Below, in pieces: positions 42,159 to 48,556 of a stretch of DNA of 64,000 bases. Both the position numbers and the translations under genes were made by a program. This stretch comes from a virus (lineage: Duplodnaviria > Caudoviricetes), in IMG/VR virus record IMGVR_UViG_3300042691_038938; one strand, written 5' to 3'. Position 1 is the stretch's first letter. Every line of letters begins with the position of its first letter. A model generated the notes under the pieces. It saw only the letters and a list, made by a program, of their open reading frames with translations. It had not been told where the DNA came from and did not search any database.

Positions 42159-42533
42159 TTAATATCTTTCCCCTCTATATCTGCGCTCGTTCTCAGCCTG
42201 GACGTCAGCCATGCGCTTCCACATCTCCTCTGTTCTTCTTTCAGAGTCCTCTCTGAATCTACCCTTTCTCTGCCACAGGCTTTCATCATCCATAAAACTC
42301 CTCTTTAGTCTGTCCAATTCCAATAAGAGCTGGTTTGCAGGCTCAGCATAGTTCTCATTGATATATCTAGAGTCGACTCCCTCAATCCTTAGAGCTCTTA
42401 GGTGATCTACTAGAGCAGAAAGATCGTTTAGTGGTTCCTGAAAGACTTCCATTGAATGTAATAGGTCCTTATATGTCTCGTTGATTCGACTCTCGTTCAG
42501 GTGATTTTCAAATCCTTTTACGTAATTCTTCAT
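42159..42533 (-). CDS. Hypothetical protein with CTS-like N-terminus
   Basis: MKNYVKGFENHLNESRINE; GATAAATA 42553-42560. Confidence 0.75.
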   Translation of the reverse strand: MKNYVKGFENHLNESRINETYKDLLHSMEVFQEPLNDLSALVDHLRALRIEGVDSRYINENYAEPANQLLLELDRLKRSFMDDESLWQRKGRFREDSERRTEEMWKRMADVQAENERRYRGERY

Positions 42534-42644
42534 GATGGTTCTTTATTTTTTTTATTTATCTACTACGGAGTCCAGCTACTAATACTAAATAACTAGAGAT
42601 AAAGATAAAAGAAAAGATTGGTAGGCGACAGAGACCCAAACCCT

Positions 42645-43109
42645 TTAAAAAGAACCGCTAAACCTTGATATGCCGCTGCTGCTATAGCCGCCGCTAGTGT
42701 CTAGAGACTGGCTTCTTGAGCCTGAAGAGCGCATTTTTGGCATTCTCTCCCAATCCGCTTTAACCTCTCTAAAATAGTTTTCAACGAAATCATTGGCTCC
42801 TTGAACAAAACCGGTTAGATTAGAGTAGGGCTCAGTCTCCAATAGCTCAAGTAGGTTTTCCCTAGTTCCTTCTACTTTACCGGCATACCACGCATCCTTA
42901 AACGCGTCCAGGATCTCATCCTCACTGTACTGTGAAATATCGACCTTTAAAAAGTCTTCTTTAGTCGGTGAATCCAGGCGTTTGAGGTACCACAGATATG
43001 CGCTCGACGGTTTTTCCGGCTCCTGCTGTCTGCTTTTTTTCCAACCGAACCAGCTCTCGTCCAACCTAGATTGCGAAAAGGATTCAAACGTCTTGATATG
43101 CTTCTTCAT
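42645..43109 (-). CDS. Hypothetical protein with CTS-like N-terminus
   Basis: MKKHIKTFESFSQSRLDE; GATAAATA 43130-43137. Confidence 0.75.
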   Translation of the reverse strand: MKKHIKTFESFSQSRLDESWFGWKKSRQQEPEKPSSAYLWYLKRLDSPTKEDFLKVDISQYSEDEILDAFKDAWYAGKVEGTRENLLELLETEPYSNLTGFVQGANDFVENYFREVKADWERMPKMRSSGSRSQSLDTSGGYSSSGISRFSGSF

Positions 43110-43173
43110 GACTCTCTTCTATTTTTCTTTATTTATCTACTAACGCTGTTCTACTACGGAGTCCAGCACCCGA

Positions 43174-43763: not shown

Positions 43764-44231
43764 TTAGTTATATTTATCAGGTCTCCATACTGGCACGTTT
43801 TCAACTCCATCGGGTATCCTATAACGTTTAGAAAAATGGGGCAGCTCATGCACGATGGACCTAGCGTCAATGCTGTGACCCTTCCTGGAGAGCACGTTCT
43901 CTATGCACTGTTCCGGATCATTGCTAAACCAGATCTCTCTTAAATCGACTCCTTCCAACTCAGCTAGACCCTGCCTAAGCTTCTCCCCTAGACCGATAAG
44001 AGTATAATCCTCAAAGTAGGGAGAGGCCAAGATCACGTGCTCTCCACTCTGCAAGGCTGATACTATCTCTTCAACGCTAGCAGAATCGTCGAAGACTCTC
44101 CACTCAAGATCGCTATCACTAATGATCTCACGTATGAGATGACTCTTACCCGAACCAGGTAGACCGTGTATCCAGACCATTGAAACCTTCGATCTGTTCT
44201 CAAATAATGAATATGATACTATGTGCTTCAT
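43764..44231 (-). CDS. P-loop kinase (PNK/AAA_33-like) with CTS-like N-terminus
   Basis: WIHGLPGSGKS; MKHIVSYSLFE; TATAAATA 44254-44261. Confidence 0.7.
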   Translation of the reverse strand: MKHIVSYSLFENRSKVSMVWIHGLPGSGKSHLIREIISDSDLEWRVFDDSASVEEIVSALQSGEHVILASPYFEDYTLIGLGEKLRQGLAELEGVDLREIWFSNDPEQCIENVLSRKGHSIDARSIVHELPHFSKRYRIPDGVENVPVWRPDKYN

Positions 44232-44529
44232 GCTATAGTTAGTTCTTTAGTTATATTTATACTACGGAGTCCGGCCACCAGTGACCAAGATACCCAGAAA
44301 CCAGGACAAAGAGAAATGGGAAGAGAGTCTCTAGACAGGAGACCCAACATCATAGATAGCCCATGGCCAGGAGCGTAGATCCTAGAGACCAGACACGATA
44401 CCAACGACCTACCGCCAGACCAGCCAAAGGAGCCCAGCTACAGTCGCACCCAGGTAGCCCTTTAGTGAGACGTAATGTGGGAACCACTGCCGACTGGGTC
44501 TACGGAGTCCCATACGGGAAACTCCATGG

Positions 44530-44568
44530 GTGCCACCCTTGTTGCCACGCTTGCTACGTTTGCCATGC
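44530..44568. repeat. Degenerate 9-bp direct repeats
   Basis: GTGCCACCC, then TTGCCACGC TTGCTACGT TTGCCATGC in tandem. Confidence 0.6.
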
Positions 44569-44606
44569 TACTTTCAGTGTGAACCCCTTATGGCAAGCCC
44601 AGGTGT

Positions 44607-44614
44607 GATAAATA
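44607..44614 (+). promoter_or_regulatory. Late-type promoter box GATAAATA
   Basis: 15 nt before ATG 44630. Confidence 0.55.
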
Positions 44615-44629
44615 ATAAGAAAGGGTAAC

Positions 44630-45322
44630 ATGTACGTAAAGGAGGTAATGGCAACCTTGCAATGCAGCTATAACGCCTGCCGCAAGTGGAGGAACGAGGG
44701 TAAGCTAAGGACCACCAAGATGCCCAACGGCAAGGTGATGTACTGGGACGACGACGTCTACGCCCTACTGGGCAAGAAGATCCAGAAGGAGAACTGGTCG
44801 GTCGCCTACTGTAGGGTACCGGGGACTACGGAGTCCGACCGGAGACTCATGCTCCGCCAGCAGCAACTGATCCGGGAGTGGTGTGCCAAGCGTGGAGTGT
44901 CTCTAGAAAAGCTCTACGACGACTGGTGCCCGTCTACTGACTTCTCCATGGACGGGAGACCCGGGTTACATGAGCTCATACAGGATGTCATAAAGAAAAA
45001 GATAAGCGTGATCGTGGTGGAGACCCCGGACAGGCTGGCTCGAGTCGGTTGGGAGATCTTTCCCTCCTGGTTCAAGTATTATGGGGTGGAGGTAATAGTC
45101 ATCAACAGTGCTATAGTGGTGCCAGAGTATCAGCAGGAGCAGGAGAGGGATCTCACGAATCTCTTGTTAAAGGCGGGCGTGGACAGGCTGGATAAGCTAG
45201 GAGCTGAGAGCCTACCGGTACCCAGAAAGCGGGAGAGGCGCAAGCACCCGGGCAAGATCACCCCTGACTGGGAGGACAAGCCAGAGACCCCATCAGATCG
45301 AGACCTGTCAGACCTCATGTAG
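44630..45322 (+). CDS. IS607-type serine recombinase homolog lacking the catalytic Ser
   Basis: N-terminal MerR-like HTH; AYCRVP in place of YARVS; VVETPDRLARVG. Confidence 0.8.
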   Translation: MYVKEVMATLQCSYNACRKWRNEGKLRTTKMPNGKVMYWDDDVYALLGKKIQKENWSVAYCRVPGTTESDRRLMLRQQQLIREWCAKRGVSLEKLYDDWCPSTDFSMDGRPGLHELIQDVIKKKISVIVVETPDRLARVGWEIFPSWFKYYGVEVIVINSAIVVPEYQQEQERDLTNLLLKAGVDRLDKLGAESLPVPRKRERRKHPGKITPDWEDKPETPSDRDLSDLM

Positions 45323-45334
45323 ATAAATATTAGT

Positions 45335-45679
45335 ATGGAAGAAGAATTAAGCCTGTATGGCGCCGGCGTCGAGTGGATCGGCCAGCGTCCCATCAACACG
45401 GTCGGCAACGACTCCCCTGACTGGGAGCTCATGTATGAGCTCTGGCTTAGGGTAAAGGACGAGTCTCCCAAACCGGTCGCGATAGAGAAGACTAGCTTCA
45501 CCGTGACAGCAGTGCAGCGAGTAAGGATCCTGGAGGAACCCGTCGCGGTCGCGCTCTTCTACTCGCTGGACGAGTGGATAGGGGAGGAGGATCCCAGGAA
45601 GGACTTTACCTGGTTCATGGTGGGAGACGGTTTCCTTCGGGAATTGGAGCTCATAAAGGAGTGGGGATTCCGCCTATAA
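45335..45679 (+). CDS. Hypothetical protein
   Basis: GATAAATA 45322-45329 upstream. Confidence 0.7.
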   Translation: MEEELSLYGAGVEWIGQRPINTVGNDSPDWELMYELWLRVKDESPKPVAIEKTSFTVTAVQRVRILEEPVAVALFYSLDEWIGEEDPRKDFTWFMVGDGFLRELELIKEWGFRL

Positions 45680-45701
45680 ATAACTAAAAAATCGAGGAGG
45701 C

Positions 45702-45845
45702 ATGGCAAAGGCGAAAGGGGCTAGCGTTGCCGTGTGGAATCCAAGAGCCAAGACCAAGCGGCCTGGAGTACACGCGAAGTGCAAACGTAGCGCCTCTAAG
45801 AAGAGCAAGAACTGGAAGAAGCCCTATCGCGGACAGGGTCGGTAA
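45702..45845 (+). CDS. 47-aa highly basic peptide (not in ORF track)
   Basis: MAKAKGASVAVWNPRAKTKRPGVHAKCKRSASKKSKNWKKPYRGQGR; TATAAATA 45675-45682 and GAGGAGG upstream. Confidence 0.75.
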   Translation: MAKAKGASVAVWNPRAKTKRPGVHAKCKRSASKKSKNWKKPYRGQGR

Positions 45846-45868
45846 CAGACAACAGTTCTACAGTCTAG

Positions 45869-45895
45869 AAGGGTCTCTTAGGGAGGCCCTTTCTT
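45869..45895 (+). terminator. Probable terminator of the + strand operon
   Basis: AAGGGTCTC-loop-GAGGCCCTT then TCTT. Confidence 0.5.
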
Positions 45896-46044
45896 GCATC
45901 TCATTAGTATCTACCGGTCAGATTAACGAGCCTCGTCCAGGGAAACGGTGTCCCTCTTGGTTGAGCTCCGCGCGCCATGGTAGCCAGGGCTCCCAGAAGT
46001 CTCGGCGGGCAGGGGAACCGGGAGACCCGGCTAGCGGTAGAAAT

Positions 46045-46067
46045 CGGGAGACTCCTCGGGTCTCCCG
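46045..46067. repeat. Perfect inverted pair of the promoter-upstream box
   Basis: CGGGAGAC-N7-GTCTCCCG. Confidence 0.85.
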
Positions 46068-46140
46068 TGTACGGGCACCCGCAGGCGGGTTACGACGCGC
46101 GATACCAGAGACTCCCTACTACGGAGTAAAAGTATGAGCC

Positions 46141-46166
46141 AAAAAAGGGAGCCGTTAAGCTCCCTC
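46141..46166 (-). terminator. Terminator ending the minus-strand array
   Basis: GGGAGC-N6-GCTCCC followed by T6 on -. Confidence 0.75.
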
Positions 46167-46185
46167 TTCTCAAGTCAAACCAACC

Positions 46186-47361
46186 TTACAAGGTCGCGTA
46201 GTCTGCGAACTGTAAGTCATATCCGCTGTTAGCTCCTTTTGCGAAGAGCTGGCCAGCAGCTGCCTTTAATTCGTATTTGTTCTCTAATTCAATTCCCGAG
46301 TTGTTGGATCCCAAGTAGGTCAAGGAGTTCACGACATCCCAGATCGACATGCCCGTTCGGATGAAGCTCTTCTGGCGATCGTTCAGCTTCATTGGGTCCT
46401 GACCCTTTTGCACTATTCTGGCCATGGTATTGTTGTAGCCGTCGAAGTAGTTGCGTTGCACCGCATCGATGAAGTTCTTCTTGAACTGTGGGTCGTCCTC
46501 CTTCACCTTGCGCTGCACGCTTAGCATTGCCTGCTCAACTTCAGTAAGACTCGCTTTAGTGGAGACCGCACGTTCCAATGACTGTTGAAAGCCTAATGGA
46601 ACAAAGTCCGCCTTCTTCATCGCTTCTATGTTGTTAAGGAAGGTACGAATGTCCTCGGCATCTGTGCCTCCTAGACGAAACTTCTCTGCGAAGTTTAGGT
46701 CACGGTTTCCACCGATGGCTCCGCTTCCTAGGCTTACTCGTAACCCATTGGAGCATACTAATCTCTGGTTGTAGGTCTCAATGATGGTGTCACGAGTGGT
46801 CTGCATGATGGAGAAGCCGAACTTAAAGAACTCGTCCTTGCCTGCTCCTGGGAAACCTACCTCGTTTTGATTTAAGAAGTTGATCTCGACCGAGCCGGAG
46901 TAAGGGTTGTGGTCGATGGTCTCTATCATCAGGGAAGGGTGCTCGTTCATGATCTTGCTCGTGATATCGAAGAGCGAGTCGGTGGTCACTCGACGGTAAC
47001 GCTTAGGATCGCAGACGTCGACGATCTCGCGAGTGCTAACGTTCGCTATTAGCAGGACTGAAGCTCCGCCCTGACGCTGACGATAATCGTTTAGTGCGTT
47101 CATCAGTGCTGCAGCAACCTTGCCGTCCTCGTTCTTGATGAACTCTCGAGTAAGGGAGGCGTTCATCTTCATCATGCTCGCTAGCTTGATAAAGAAGTTC
47201 TGAGCCACCTTGACTGGCTGGCCTGACACCTCTATCTGACCCTTAAGGAACGATTGGTCGCTGAGCTTGATCGCTGAGGTAGGCACCTCTTTAGTAGCAA
47301 ACTCGTTGGACACCATCGCCTCGCGAATGGCATCGAATTGTGATTGTGTTACTTCTCTCAT
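46186..47361 (-). CDS. DUF932-like protein
   Basis: YNQRLVCSNGL resembles the DUF932 RxVCxNGL motif. Confidence 0.55.
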   Translation of the reverse strand: MREVTQSQFDAIREAMVSNEFATKEVPTSAIKLSDQSFLKGQIEVSGQPVKVAQNFFIKLASMMKMNASLTREFIKNEDGKVAAALMNALNDYRQRQGGASVLLIANVSTREIVDVCDPKRYRRVTTDSLFDITSKIMNEHPSLMIETIDHNPYSGSVEINFLNQNEVGFPGAGKDEFFKFGFSIMQTTRDTIIETYNQRLVCSNGLRVSLGSGAIGGNRDLNFAEKFRLGGTDAEDIRTFLNNIEAMKKADFVPLGFQQSLERAVSTKASLTEVEQAMLSVQRKVKEDDPQFKKNFIDAVQRNYFDGYNNTMARIVQKGQDPMKLNDRQKSFIRTGMSIWDVVNSLTYLGSNNSGIELENKYELKAAAGQLFAKGANSGYDLQFADYATL

Positions 47362-47437: not shown

Positions 47438-48556
47438 TTAATTTTCGTCGTCCCCTTCGATTTCTACTAGGTCCTGATCCTCCTCTTCTACGGAGTGATC
47501 GTCGAACGTTCTGCCCAAGAAGACCTGCTCAAAGCGTAGGCTCAAGTCCTGCTGACGCAAGGTCTCGACGTTCTCCATTGAGCGTAGCTCCTCGGTCTCA
47601 GCATAGCGTGTAACGTCGTACACCACCTGACCTTCCTCGTTCAGCTTGTAGTAGAGACGTTTGCCCGTACCGCTGCCGCCTCGACGGTTCTTTGAGAACT
47701 CTAGGTAGCGTAGGCCAGTCGAGTCGAAACGGATCTCAACCATTGCCGTAGTTGCATGCTTAAGATATGTAGAACCAACGTACTGCCCTCCCTTCGTCAT
47801 GTGCTGGATGGCCAACACTGCACAGCCGTTCTTCTCTGCCGCATCGATCATCATGTTAGTCATCCACGACTCGGCTTTAGTTGACTTCCAACCATGTACT
47901 TCCTTGAGCTTTACTAACACGTCCTGATAAGAGTCTAAGAGGATGATGTCGTAGTCGCCGTTGAAGGTCTTCTCGAGGACGGGTGCAAGCTGATTAGACT
48001 TCACGTAATCCATGAGCAAGAGTGTGGGCACGCGACCGATGGCAGGGGTCTTACGATAGTAGAACATGATGTCGTTTCTGGTCATCTCGCTGGAGATGTA
48101 TAGGATCCTTGCCTCGGGGTTTTGGTCCACGACAGATGCCAAGAGATCCAGCATGACAGTTGACTTACCGACGCCTGACTCGCCGATGACGATGTTCACA
48201 GTACCGCCGTAGATACCGCCACCTTCCTCATGGTCTGAGAAGAGATCGTCGATCTTTTTGCCTGTACGGAAGAGACCGAAGTTAGGGAACTCCATGTCCT
48301 CCACCCTTACTATCTGAGGCTCTACTACGGAGTGAACTGATGCAGTATGTTCGCTGCGTTCGTAGTGACCCTCGGCCACGATCTTCTTGATGACTCCATT
48401 GAAGAGCCCGTATGAGATCTCCTCGGGCCTTTCACCCGCGTCGAATTCCTGGAACAGGTCCAGTACCTTTGAGCGAGTCGGCACGACTCCTTCGTAAGCG
48501 TCATTAAACCACTGTCTAACGATTTGCTCCTTCTTTCCTCCTGTGATTTCAATCAT
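47438..48556 (-). CDS. RadA/Sms-like RecA-fold ATPase
   Basis: GESGVGKST, LYISSE, ILLDSYQ, QHMTKGGQYVG, KNRRGG; no Zn finger or Lon-like domain. Confidence 0.75.
   Translation of the reverse strand: MIEITGGKKEQIVRQWFNDAYEGVVPTRSKVLDLFQEFDAGERPEEISYGLFNGVIKKIVAEGHYERSEHTASVHSVVEPQIVRVEDMEFPNFGLFRTGKKIDDLFSDHEEGGGIYGGTVNIVIGESGVGKSTVMLDLLASVVDQNPEARILYISSEMTRNDIMFYYRKTPAIGRVPTLLLMDYVKSNQLAPVLEKTFNGDYDIILLDSYQDVLVKLKEVHGWKSTKAESWMTNMMIDAAEKNGCAVLAIQHMTKGGQYVGSTYLKHATTAMVEIRFDSTGLRYLEFSKNRRGGSGTGKRLYYKLNEEGQVVYDVTRYAETEELRSMENVETLRQQDLSLRFEQVFLGRTFDDHSVEEEDQDLVEIEGDDEN

Follow-up and report, generated by a model that had tools for sequence, protein, structure and literature searches.

A serine-less IS607-type transposase homologue as a candidate sequence-specific DNA binder of freshwater T4-like jumbo phages

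Transposases of the IS607 family (IS607 OrfA, IS1535, ISC1926) combine an N-terminal winged helix with a resolvase-type domain, and the substitution Ser72Gly in IS607 OrfA abolishes transposition (Chen et al. 2018, PMC6188088). Binding of TnpA dimers to the several repeats of the subterminal region is cooperative, and IS1535 TnpA coats the repeats of the transposon end (PMC6188088). Purely architectural binding and bridging without cutting has a precedent in the accessory subunits of the resolvase and Sin synaptosomes (res sites II/III; PMC2428073), although these subunits are a catalytically competent protein, whereas the phage gene described here has itself lost the codon for the nucleophile. 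Similarly, TldR, in the available part of its description (PMC13418256), is a nuclease-dead TnpB turned phage transcription factor, and is likewise a component of IS605/IS607-type elements domesticated as a non-cutting DNA-targeting protein; unlike the phage protein, it derives from tnpB, is RNA-guided and has been tested experimentally. In T4-type phages, PeSLs are described, in the accessible parts of two papers (PMC2839356, PMC4122927), as promoter–terminator motifs, and no paper returned by the literature searches connects PeSLs with a strand-polar 9-mer or a transposase-derived protein. Literature searches on serine recombinases without the serine returned nothing relevant, and no description of a domesticated IS607-type serine transposase was found.

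The window analysed here (a 64-kb stretch of DNA from a tailed phage, IMG/VR record IMGVR_UViG_3300042691_038938) encodes a protein with the same domain order as these TnpAs, preceded by a promoter-like box.

44630–45322, + strand: coding sequence of the TnpA-derived protein, 230 aa (open reading frame, profile and fold matches)
44607–44614, + strand: GATAAATA box, 16 nt 5′ of the ATG, T4 late promoter-like, invariant in 9 aligned relatives

The protein consists of a winged helix (residues ~1–50), a resolvase-type domain (~56–181) and a C-terminal extension that contains HPGKI(T/V)PDW and ends in DLSDLM. The Pfam Resolvase profile (PF00239) covers residues 58–165 at 45 bits (cut-off 23.3), HTH_17 and MerR_1 match residues 3–46 weakly, phrog_6620 (‘transposase’) matches at 1.8e-24, and the NCBIfam IS607 transposase profile (NF033518) scores 89.3 bits, under its curated cut-off of 110. 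An AF2 model (pLDDT 74.9) places the winged helix at 1–46, strand 1 at 56–63, a loop at 64–67 and helix A from residue 68, and the top PDB matches, both by sequence and by Foldseek with this model, are catalytic domains of IS607-like TnpAs (3lhk, 6dgc, 3ilx, 3lhf, 6dgb). Pfam, model and Foldseek agree on the arrangement typical of IS607 TnpA, a MerR/excisionase-type HTH and then a resolvase-type catalytic domain, and bear out the first-pass annotation, which had described both domains as present. The Arg/Asp pocket of PF00239 serine recombinases is also in place, with R62, D134, R135 and R138 standing for R8, D67, R68 and R71, as are the equivalents of Y6, D36 and R45 of IS607 TnpA; the DRLAR reported as retained lies within PDRLAR (133–138). 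Unlike IS607 TnpA, the phage protein lacks the serine nucleophile, has a 2-aa loop insertion and the extra C-terminal extension, falls below the NCBIfam cut-off and has a late-type promoter box in front of its gene. HPGKI(V/T)PDW and the acidic-hydrophobic tail DLSDLM-COOH (45245–45319) are conserved behind a variable linker, and the tail consensus [DG]L[SA]D[LM][MILV]-COOH is widely conserved, distant family clusters included. By analogy with the clamp-binding epitopes of T4, this tail looks like a docking peptide; for a T4-type sliding-clamp epitope in particular, the DNA polymerase fragment in the window has a quite different C-terminal end, and a search of the window for a clamp gene found none. 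Among GenBank phages, only canonical TnpAs (24–32% identity) were found, and a close relative was absent.

The T4 late promoter has the sequence TATAAATA. The related GATAAATA occurs 20 times in the window where 3.5 copies are expected, nearly always 8–35 nt before the start of an open reading frame and also before structural genes such as the head-closure gene. The late box ascribed to the transposase homologue is one of these copies, and by analogy with the T4 promoter the gene is probably expressed late, a timing read from the box alone.

The genomic setting of the gene is not that of a mobile element. A protein search returned at least 120 clusters with 45–100% identity and an intact frame, nearly all of 226–240 aa, on contigs of up to 270 kb, and the gene occupies an identical position in phage contigs of 100–270 kb. 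For example, in three relatives (84, 70 and 45% identity) it is convergent with the gene for a RecA-fold ATPase of 355–382 aa, with a sigma-factor gene a few kb away. The context of an IS607 element (tnpB, several copies or variable sites, two ends) was not found: the gene is present once in the 64-kb window, the two downstream open reading frames encode no TnpB domain, as had been noted before, and the window holds no second array of the hexamers described below that could form a second end. The alignment of homologues and dN/dS analysis proposed in the first-pass annotation yielded a variable Ser column with a single loss of the residue, and a dN/dS of 0.05–0.25 (Nei–Gojobori, unsaturated pairs). 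Domestication of an IS607-type TnpA, until then only apparent, is well supported by the single copy, the absence of tnpB, the fixed and syntenic position, purifying selection and the single loss of the serine. That the gene is instead a decaying IS607 remnant absent from relatives, the refuting case raised earlier, would agree with the missing Ser and tnpB and the sub-threshold NCBIfam score, but is hardly credible given the at least 120 full-length homologues with open frames, the low dN/dS, the conserved neighbours and the new, family-specific conserved motifs at the C-terminus.

The active-site loop reads YCRVPGTTES where TnpA has YARVS.

44819–44821, + strand: codon CCG for Pro64, at the place of the catalytic Ser in canonical Y-A-R-V-S (HMMER alignment to MJ0014/TnpA)
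44825–44836, + strand: exact copy of the polar motif ACTACGGAGTCC inside codons T66-T67-E68-S69, with synonymous sites frozen

Pro64 aligns to the serine of Y-x-R-V-S, as previously stated, with one correction: across 120 homologues this column takes several states (A 68, N 20, G 9, P 7, T 7, S 5, D 4), and Pro is just the one found in the window's lineage. The G-T-T-E-S that follows (residues 65–69) is nearly invariant in these homologues, R62, D98, T103, R110, R135 and R138 are invariant, position 66 is Thr in 112 and Ser in 4, and D134 is changed to Cys in 16. The stretch from R-V to helix A is two residues longer in the family than in canonical TnpA, and counting back from the invariant M74 and Q77 brings T66 into the register of the canonical Ser. 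In a codon alignment of 39 distinct genes (47–87% identity to the window), T66 is encoded by ACT in 37/37, T67 by ACG in 31/32, E68 by GAG in 36/37 and S69 by TCC in 36/36, while the invariant R62, V63 and R71 use 5, 4 and 6 codons, respectively; the five-codon window TTESD has a codon identity of 0.974 against a median of 0.47 (rank 1 of 226). The frozen codons point to selection on the nucleotides ACTACGGAGTCC, that is, on the polar motif, whose exact match at 44825 agrees with the earlier reading of GTTES as encoded by a motif copy, and conservation of TTES is therefore largely a DNA-level effect.

More distant relatives argue against a restored nucleophile. In a wider phage clade, alike in insertion, synteny and motif, the loops (for example RVNGVFKEDK, RVKGVFQADK and RVNQKTGPGK) have no Ser/Thr in common, and three of its members (L077, L081, L085) have neither residue. 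A search of representatives covered 1.84 billion sequences, and in the ~25 nearest 50%-identity clusters examined, K, H, N, R or E stands at position 66, Cys, Ser or Asn often takes the place of D67, and several clusters have lost the equivalent of R71, including ones that carry Ser at 64. A Thr nucleophile is therefore unlikely, since wider relatives lack Ser/Thr and some lack other catalytic residues as well. In a maximum-likelihood tree, all 46 of the 46 proteins without the canonical Ser and with the insertion are split from 18 canonical YARVS proteins by a 100/99 branch, and L035, the sole member of the window's clade with Ser64, is nested deep within the Ser-less group. On this tree the serine was lost once, together with the 2-aa loop insertion, at the base of the phage clade, and the simplest reading is one ancestral loss followed by a non-catalytic life. 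Six TnpA-like clusters outside the clade are also without Ser at Y-x-R-V-S (P0138, P0142, P0150, P0164, P0168 and P0191, with RVKN, RIAT, RVTK, RVNK, RVNN and RVDE, respectively), and Ser-less TnpA homologues may have arisen several times; the search of representatives thus points to several more such lineages in metagenomes.

The nucleotide word inside the gene belongs to a set of strand-polar copies, of which four lie upstream.

44500–44510, + strand: polar motif copy at −130, in a conserved block, at the left edge of the swapped module
44262–44272, + strand: polar motif copy at −368; its minus-strand side directly adjoins the late box of gene 43764–44231
43154–43164, + strand: polar motif copy, CC class; its minus-strand side is 13 nt from the late box of gene 42645–43109
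42563–42573, + strand: polar motif copy, CC class; its minus-strand side directly adjoins the late box of gene 42159–42533

These are the other exact copies of CTACGGAGTCC, all on the + strand, against 0.8 expected by chance, and this longer form, an 11-mer, is restricted to a cluster of 3–6 copies near the gene (contigs of 50–127 kb). The 9-mer core CTACGGAGT occurs 16 times in the window (42563–63871), 16 to 0 on the + strand and all within 42.5–64 kb; in 39 family loci (303 kb) it was counted 221 times on the gene's strand and never on the other, and the contigs of four relatives have 6–17 copies on a single strand. In the three relatives whose domain is uncut by a contig end, the 9-mer spans 19–25 kb and is densest towards the end where the gene lies, and it is confined to the early-gene domain of 20–25 kb, with about one copy per 1–2 kb, coding sequences included. 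In the early cassettes, the motif lies 3′ of the terminator hairpin on the strand that is transcribed. Of 39 distinct coding sequences, 38 contain one or more embedded copies, at +196, +304 or +449: the +196 copy (TTES) in 31/39 genes, and further copies at +304 (S-T-E) and +449 (Y-Y-G-V) in the ~50%-identity clade. In the wider clade the motif lies 31–51 nt 5′ of the ATG or in upstream arrays, and in one clade it is inverted relative to the gene. Some factor reads the polar DNA word. A 14-mer, TTACTACGGAGTCC, has 82 matches in IMG/VR, mostly single and at chance level except in known relatives, and therefore carries no information on phages without the gene; a literature search on the motif returned nothing relevant. 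A conserved block of ~50 nt (CCGTAATG...CCTACG) precedes the −130 copy and forms the left flank of the swapped module; the copy and, 3′ of it, a small conserved hairpin, GTCCC-N4-GGGA, lie within 44500–44530 of the window and at the corresponding place in relatives.

Motif copies are also found in and near a conserved neighbour of the gene.

47438–48556, − strand: gene for a RadA/Sms-like RecA-fold ATPase, closest to bacterial RadA

The ATPase gene has embedded copies at 47488–47496 and 48325–48333, both of which read x-S-V-x in variable linkers. All relatives have two such copies, one on either side of the ATPase core and ~840–860 bp from each other, in highly variable protein sequence of which only [DHNY]-S-V-[VEA] is kept. 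A complex prediction for the TnpA-derived protein with this ATPase gave no support and allowed no call. The stretch 44250–46200, which holds the TnpA-derived gene, forms a + strand island between minus-strand blocks, with a G+C of 0.53–0.59 against ~0.40–0.45 in most of the window. Downstream of the gene, a 47-aa, extremely basic (Lys/Arg-rich) open reading frame (45702–45845, + strand) has its own TATAAATA box at ~45675, in a position that is not conserved in relatives. It is followed by a GC-rich (0.57–0.59), non-coding stretch with stacked GGGAGAC/GTCTCCC palindromes (45846–46118). This stretch separates the + strand genes from the terminator of gene 46186–47361 and ends in a polar-motif copy at 46119. 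Rfam (gathering thresholds) and a tRNA scan gave no matches in the window, and contigs of four DNA sequencing runs yielded strain variation only, plus untrustworthy short-sided joints (side 20).

Directly 5′ of the gene, short repeats form a row in the interval from the −130 motif copy to the late box.

44531–44596, + strand: phased hexamer array, candidate winged-helix binding array, unique in the 64-kb window
Members: TGCCAC at 44531, TGCCAC at 44543, TGCTAC at 44552, TGCCAT at 44561, TGCTAC at 44566 and an inverted ATGGCA at 44590

The array extends from −101 to −35 of the start codon and has 6 matches in 110 nt, compared with at most 2 in any other 110-nt stretch of the 64 kb. Relatives carry 5–8 hexamers at like positions with respect to the box (~−78, −66, −57, −48 and −37, and an inverted copy at −17), with words that differ by lineage, namely CTATCA, CTG(T/A)CA, T(A/G)CTCA, GGGGTTCA/CAACTT and CCCACT; exact 5-mer counts beat shuffles at p<0.05 in 17/35 loci, i.e. 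about half. The word follows the recognition helix of the protein: TGCCAC occurs with SYNACRKW or SYNGLRKW, CTATCA with SYNTLK[ST]W, T[AG]CTCA with SYSTVRRY and GGGGTTCA with SISTFKRY, and the pairing persists where it is at odds with the whole-protein tree. For example, loci L001 and L008 encode C-domains that are 94% identical and N-domains that are 39% identical, and their arrays differ; L033 and L039 show the same pattern, with N-domain identities of such pairs spanning 39–49%. By sliding-window identity, the diverged DNA segment runs from ~−115, just after the −130 motif block, to ~+100/+160, which together with the domain identities shows that array, promoter box and winged helix are exchanged as one module. 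Such co-exchange would be the pattern expected of a cognate protein–site pair, making the hexamer array the best candidate for the binding site of the winged helix. A row of short repeats directly 5′ of the gene is also reminiscent of the left end of an IS607-family element, with its subterminal motifs bound by TnpA (PMC6188088), the phage array being a candidate site; unlike the element, the phage gene has no tnpB and no second repeat array in the window, and is single-copy and syntenic. As far as the accessible PeSL descriptions go, there is a further likeness in that the gene sits at the edge of an early promoter–terminator cassette array and its own candidate binding module is shuffled between conserved flanks.

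Two other sequences had been proposed as the DNA read by this protein. The GAGAC box is not supported, as relatives do not share the copy within the gene (44843), which is put down to chance. Nor is the polar motif supported as the site of the winged helix, since recognition-helix identity between lineages is 27–60% while the motif is invariant, which speaks against this helix as the reader. A broader form of the idea, in which the protein reads CTACGGAGT(CC) in and around its own gene and in the early-promoter cassettes, is rather unlikely. Both motif and C-domain are highly conserved, and the domain possibly reads the motif; binding might then occur via this catalytic-type domain instead of the winged helix, and the motif's central GG would be what is left of the end/target dinucleotide of IS607. 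The confinement of the 11-mer to the cluster around the gene, the embedded copies in nearly every coding sequence, the positions upstream of the ATG in the wider clade and the −130 copy, placed ~19 bp beyond the hexamer array at the point expected for an IS607 end with its GG, are consistent with such a reader. However, the 9-mer core marks the whole early-gene domain and also lies inside the ATPase gene, so that its reader could be any conserved factor of phage or host, and the inversion of the motif relative to the gene in one clade, like the variable helix, counts against this protein as the reader. It is less probable still that the hexamer row is a structural element (a hairpin, cruciform or leader RNA) while the protein acts elsewhere or via protein–protein contacts, for example through its widely conserved C-terminal tail. 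The last hexamer, always inverted, can pair with an upstream copy (TTGCCAT/ATGGCAA in the window, GCTATCA/TGATAGC in L006 and GGGGTTCA/TGAACCCC in L008), and these pairings amount to compensatory changes between lineages, but 4–7 more direct copies at ~10 nt spacing are without a pairing partner and the word class follows the recognition helix; a leader RNA is further disfavoured by the position of the array 5′ of the promoter-like box, which would leave it out of the late mRNA.

Least expected among these functional readings is an active recombinase or nickase with the nucleophile shifted to Thr66 (Ser in the R[MV]NKSTTES subclade) and the ‘xG’ at 64–65 as the insertion. The near-constant Thr or Ser at position 66, the invariant R62, D98, T103, R110, R135 and R138, and the modelled loop (64–67) just before helix A would suit such an enzyme, and T66 is kept even in the motif-less variants GTGES, GTSEL, GTQES, GTGEK and GTEEA. 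Its uniform ACT codon, however, points to DNA-level and not protein-level selection; P0056 (NGRDDKA), L077, L081, L085 and most 50%-identity representatives are without Ser/Thr at 64–67, the D67- and R71-equivalents are missing in many relatives, and essential genes flanked by directly repeated sites of a working recombinase would be deleted. No natural serine recombinase is known to use a Thr nucleophile. The protein is therefore likely, short of proof, to be non-cutting, which upholds that part of the original proposal on the strength of the DNA-driven GTTES codons and the wider relatives without Ser/Thr. The caveat attached to it, that a nearby Ser/Thr could restore activity, applies in weakened form, as T66, T67 and S69 are conserved mainly as codons of a DNA motif; the retained catalytic-type residues and T66 leave a low probability of residual chemistry in the GTTES subclade.

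The reading preferred here, with a probability of roughly 0.55, is that the gene encodes a domesticated, nucleophile-less TnpA that serves as a sequence-specific DNA binder in a clade of freshwater T4-like jumbo phages. The protein would be unable to form the phospho-serine link, and its N-terminal winged helix would bind the 5–8 hexamers, ~10 bp apart, 5′ of its own start codon, loading cooperatively as the dimers of IS607-family TnpA do on a transposon end with its many short repeats. Several dimers would thus build a nucleoprotein complex where the early-gene domain has its edge. This complex would control, at a minimum, the promoter of the gene itself, and via the conserved catalytic-type domain it might also hold or bridge DNA elsewhere. 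GTTES would then be the protein-level shadow of a DNA motif under selection within the gene and no new active site. Several observations weigh against this DNA-binder model: the hexamers could be arms of a DNA or RNA hairpin, as the last copy is always inverted and the same covariation would be expected; the exact 5-mer counts are significant in only half of the loci; adjacent elements may be co-inherited by linkage alone; and the catalytic-type residues are invariant and T66 nearly so, with five lineages that lack the embedded motif still keeping T66.

A more far-reaching combination, in which the Ser-less TnpA, the winged-helix/array module and CTACGGAGT together form a domesticated transposon-end synaptic machine, is a speculative proposal that is improbable at present. 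If true, a TnpA filament would start from the array, polar-motif sites, as relics of the GG end/target, would be captured by the catalytic-type domain, and with these sites kept every 1–2 kb on one strand, coding sequences included, the machine would organise, silence or shuffle the domain of early-gene cassettes.

Domestication is well documented among DDE transposases and has recently been described for TnpB, and the phage gene would extend it to the IS607-type serine transposases. It offers a case in which a ‘conserved protein motif’ is written by a DNA signal, in a gene tied to a strictly one-stranded 9-mer (221 to 0 in relatives) of T4-like jumbo phages. The at least 120 sequence clusters, with their naturally swapped pairs of winged helix and array, make the proposed recognition a clear, testable prediction.
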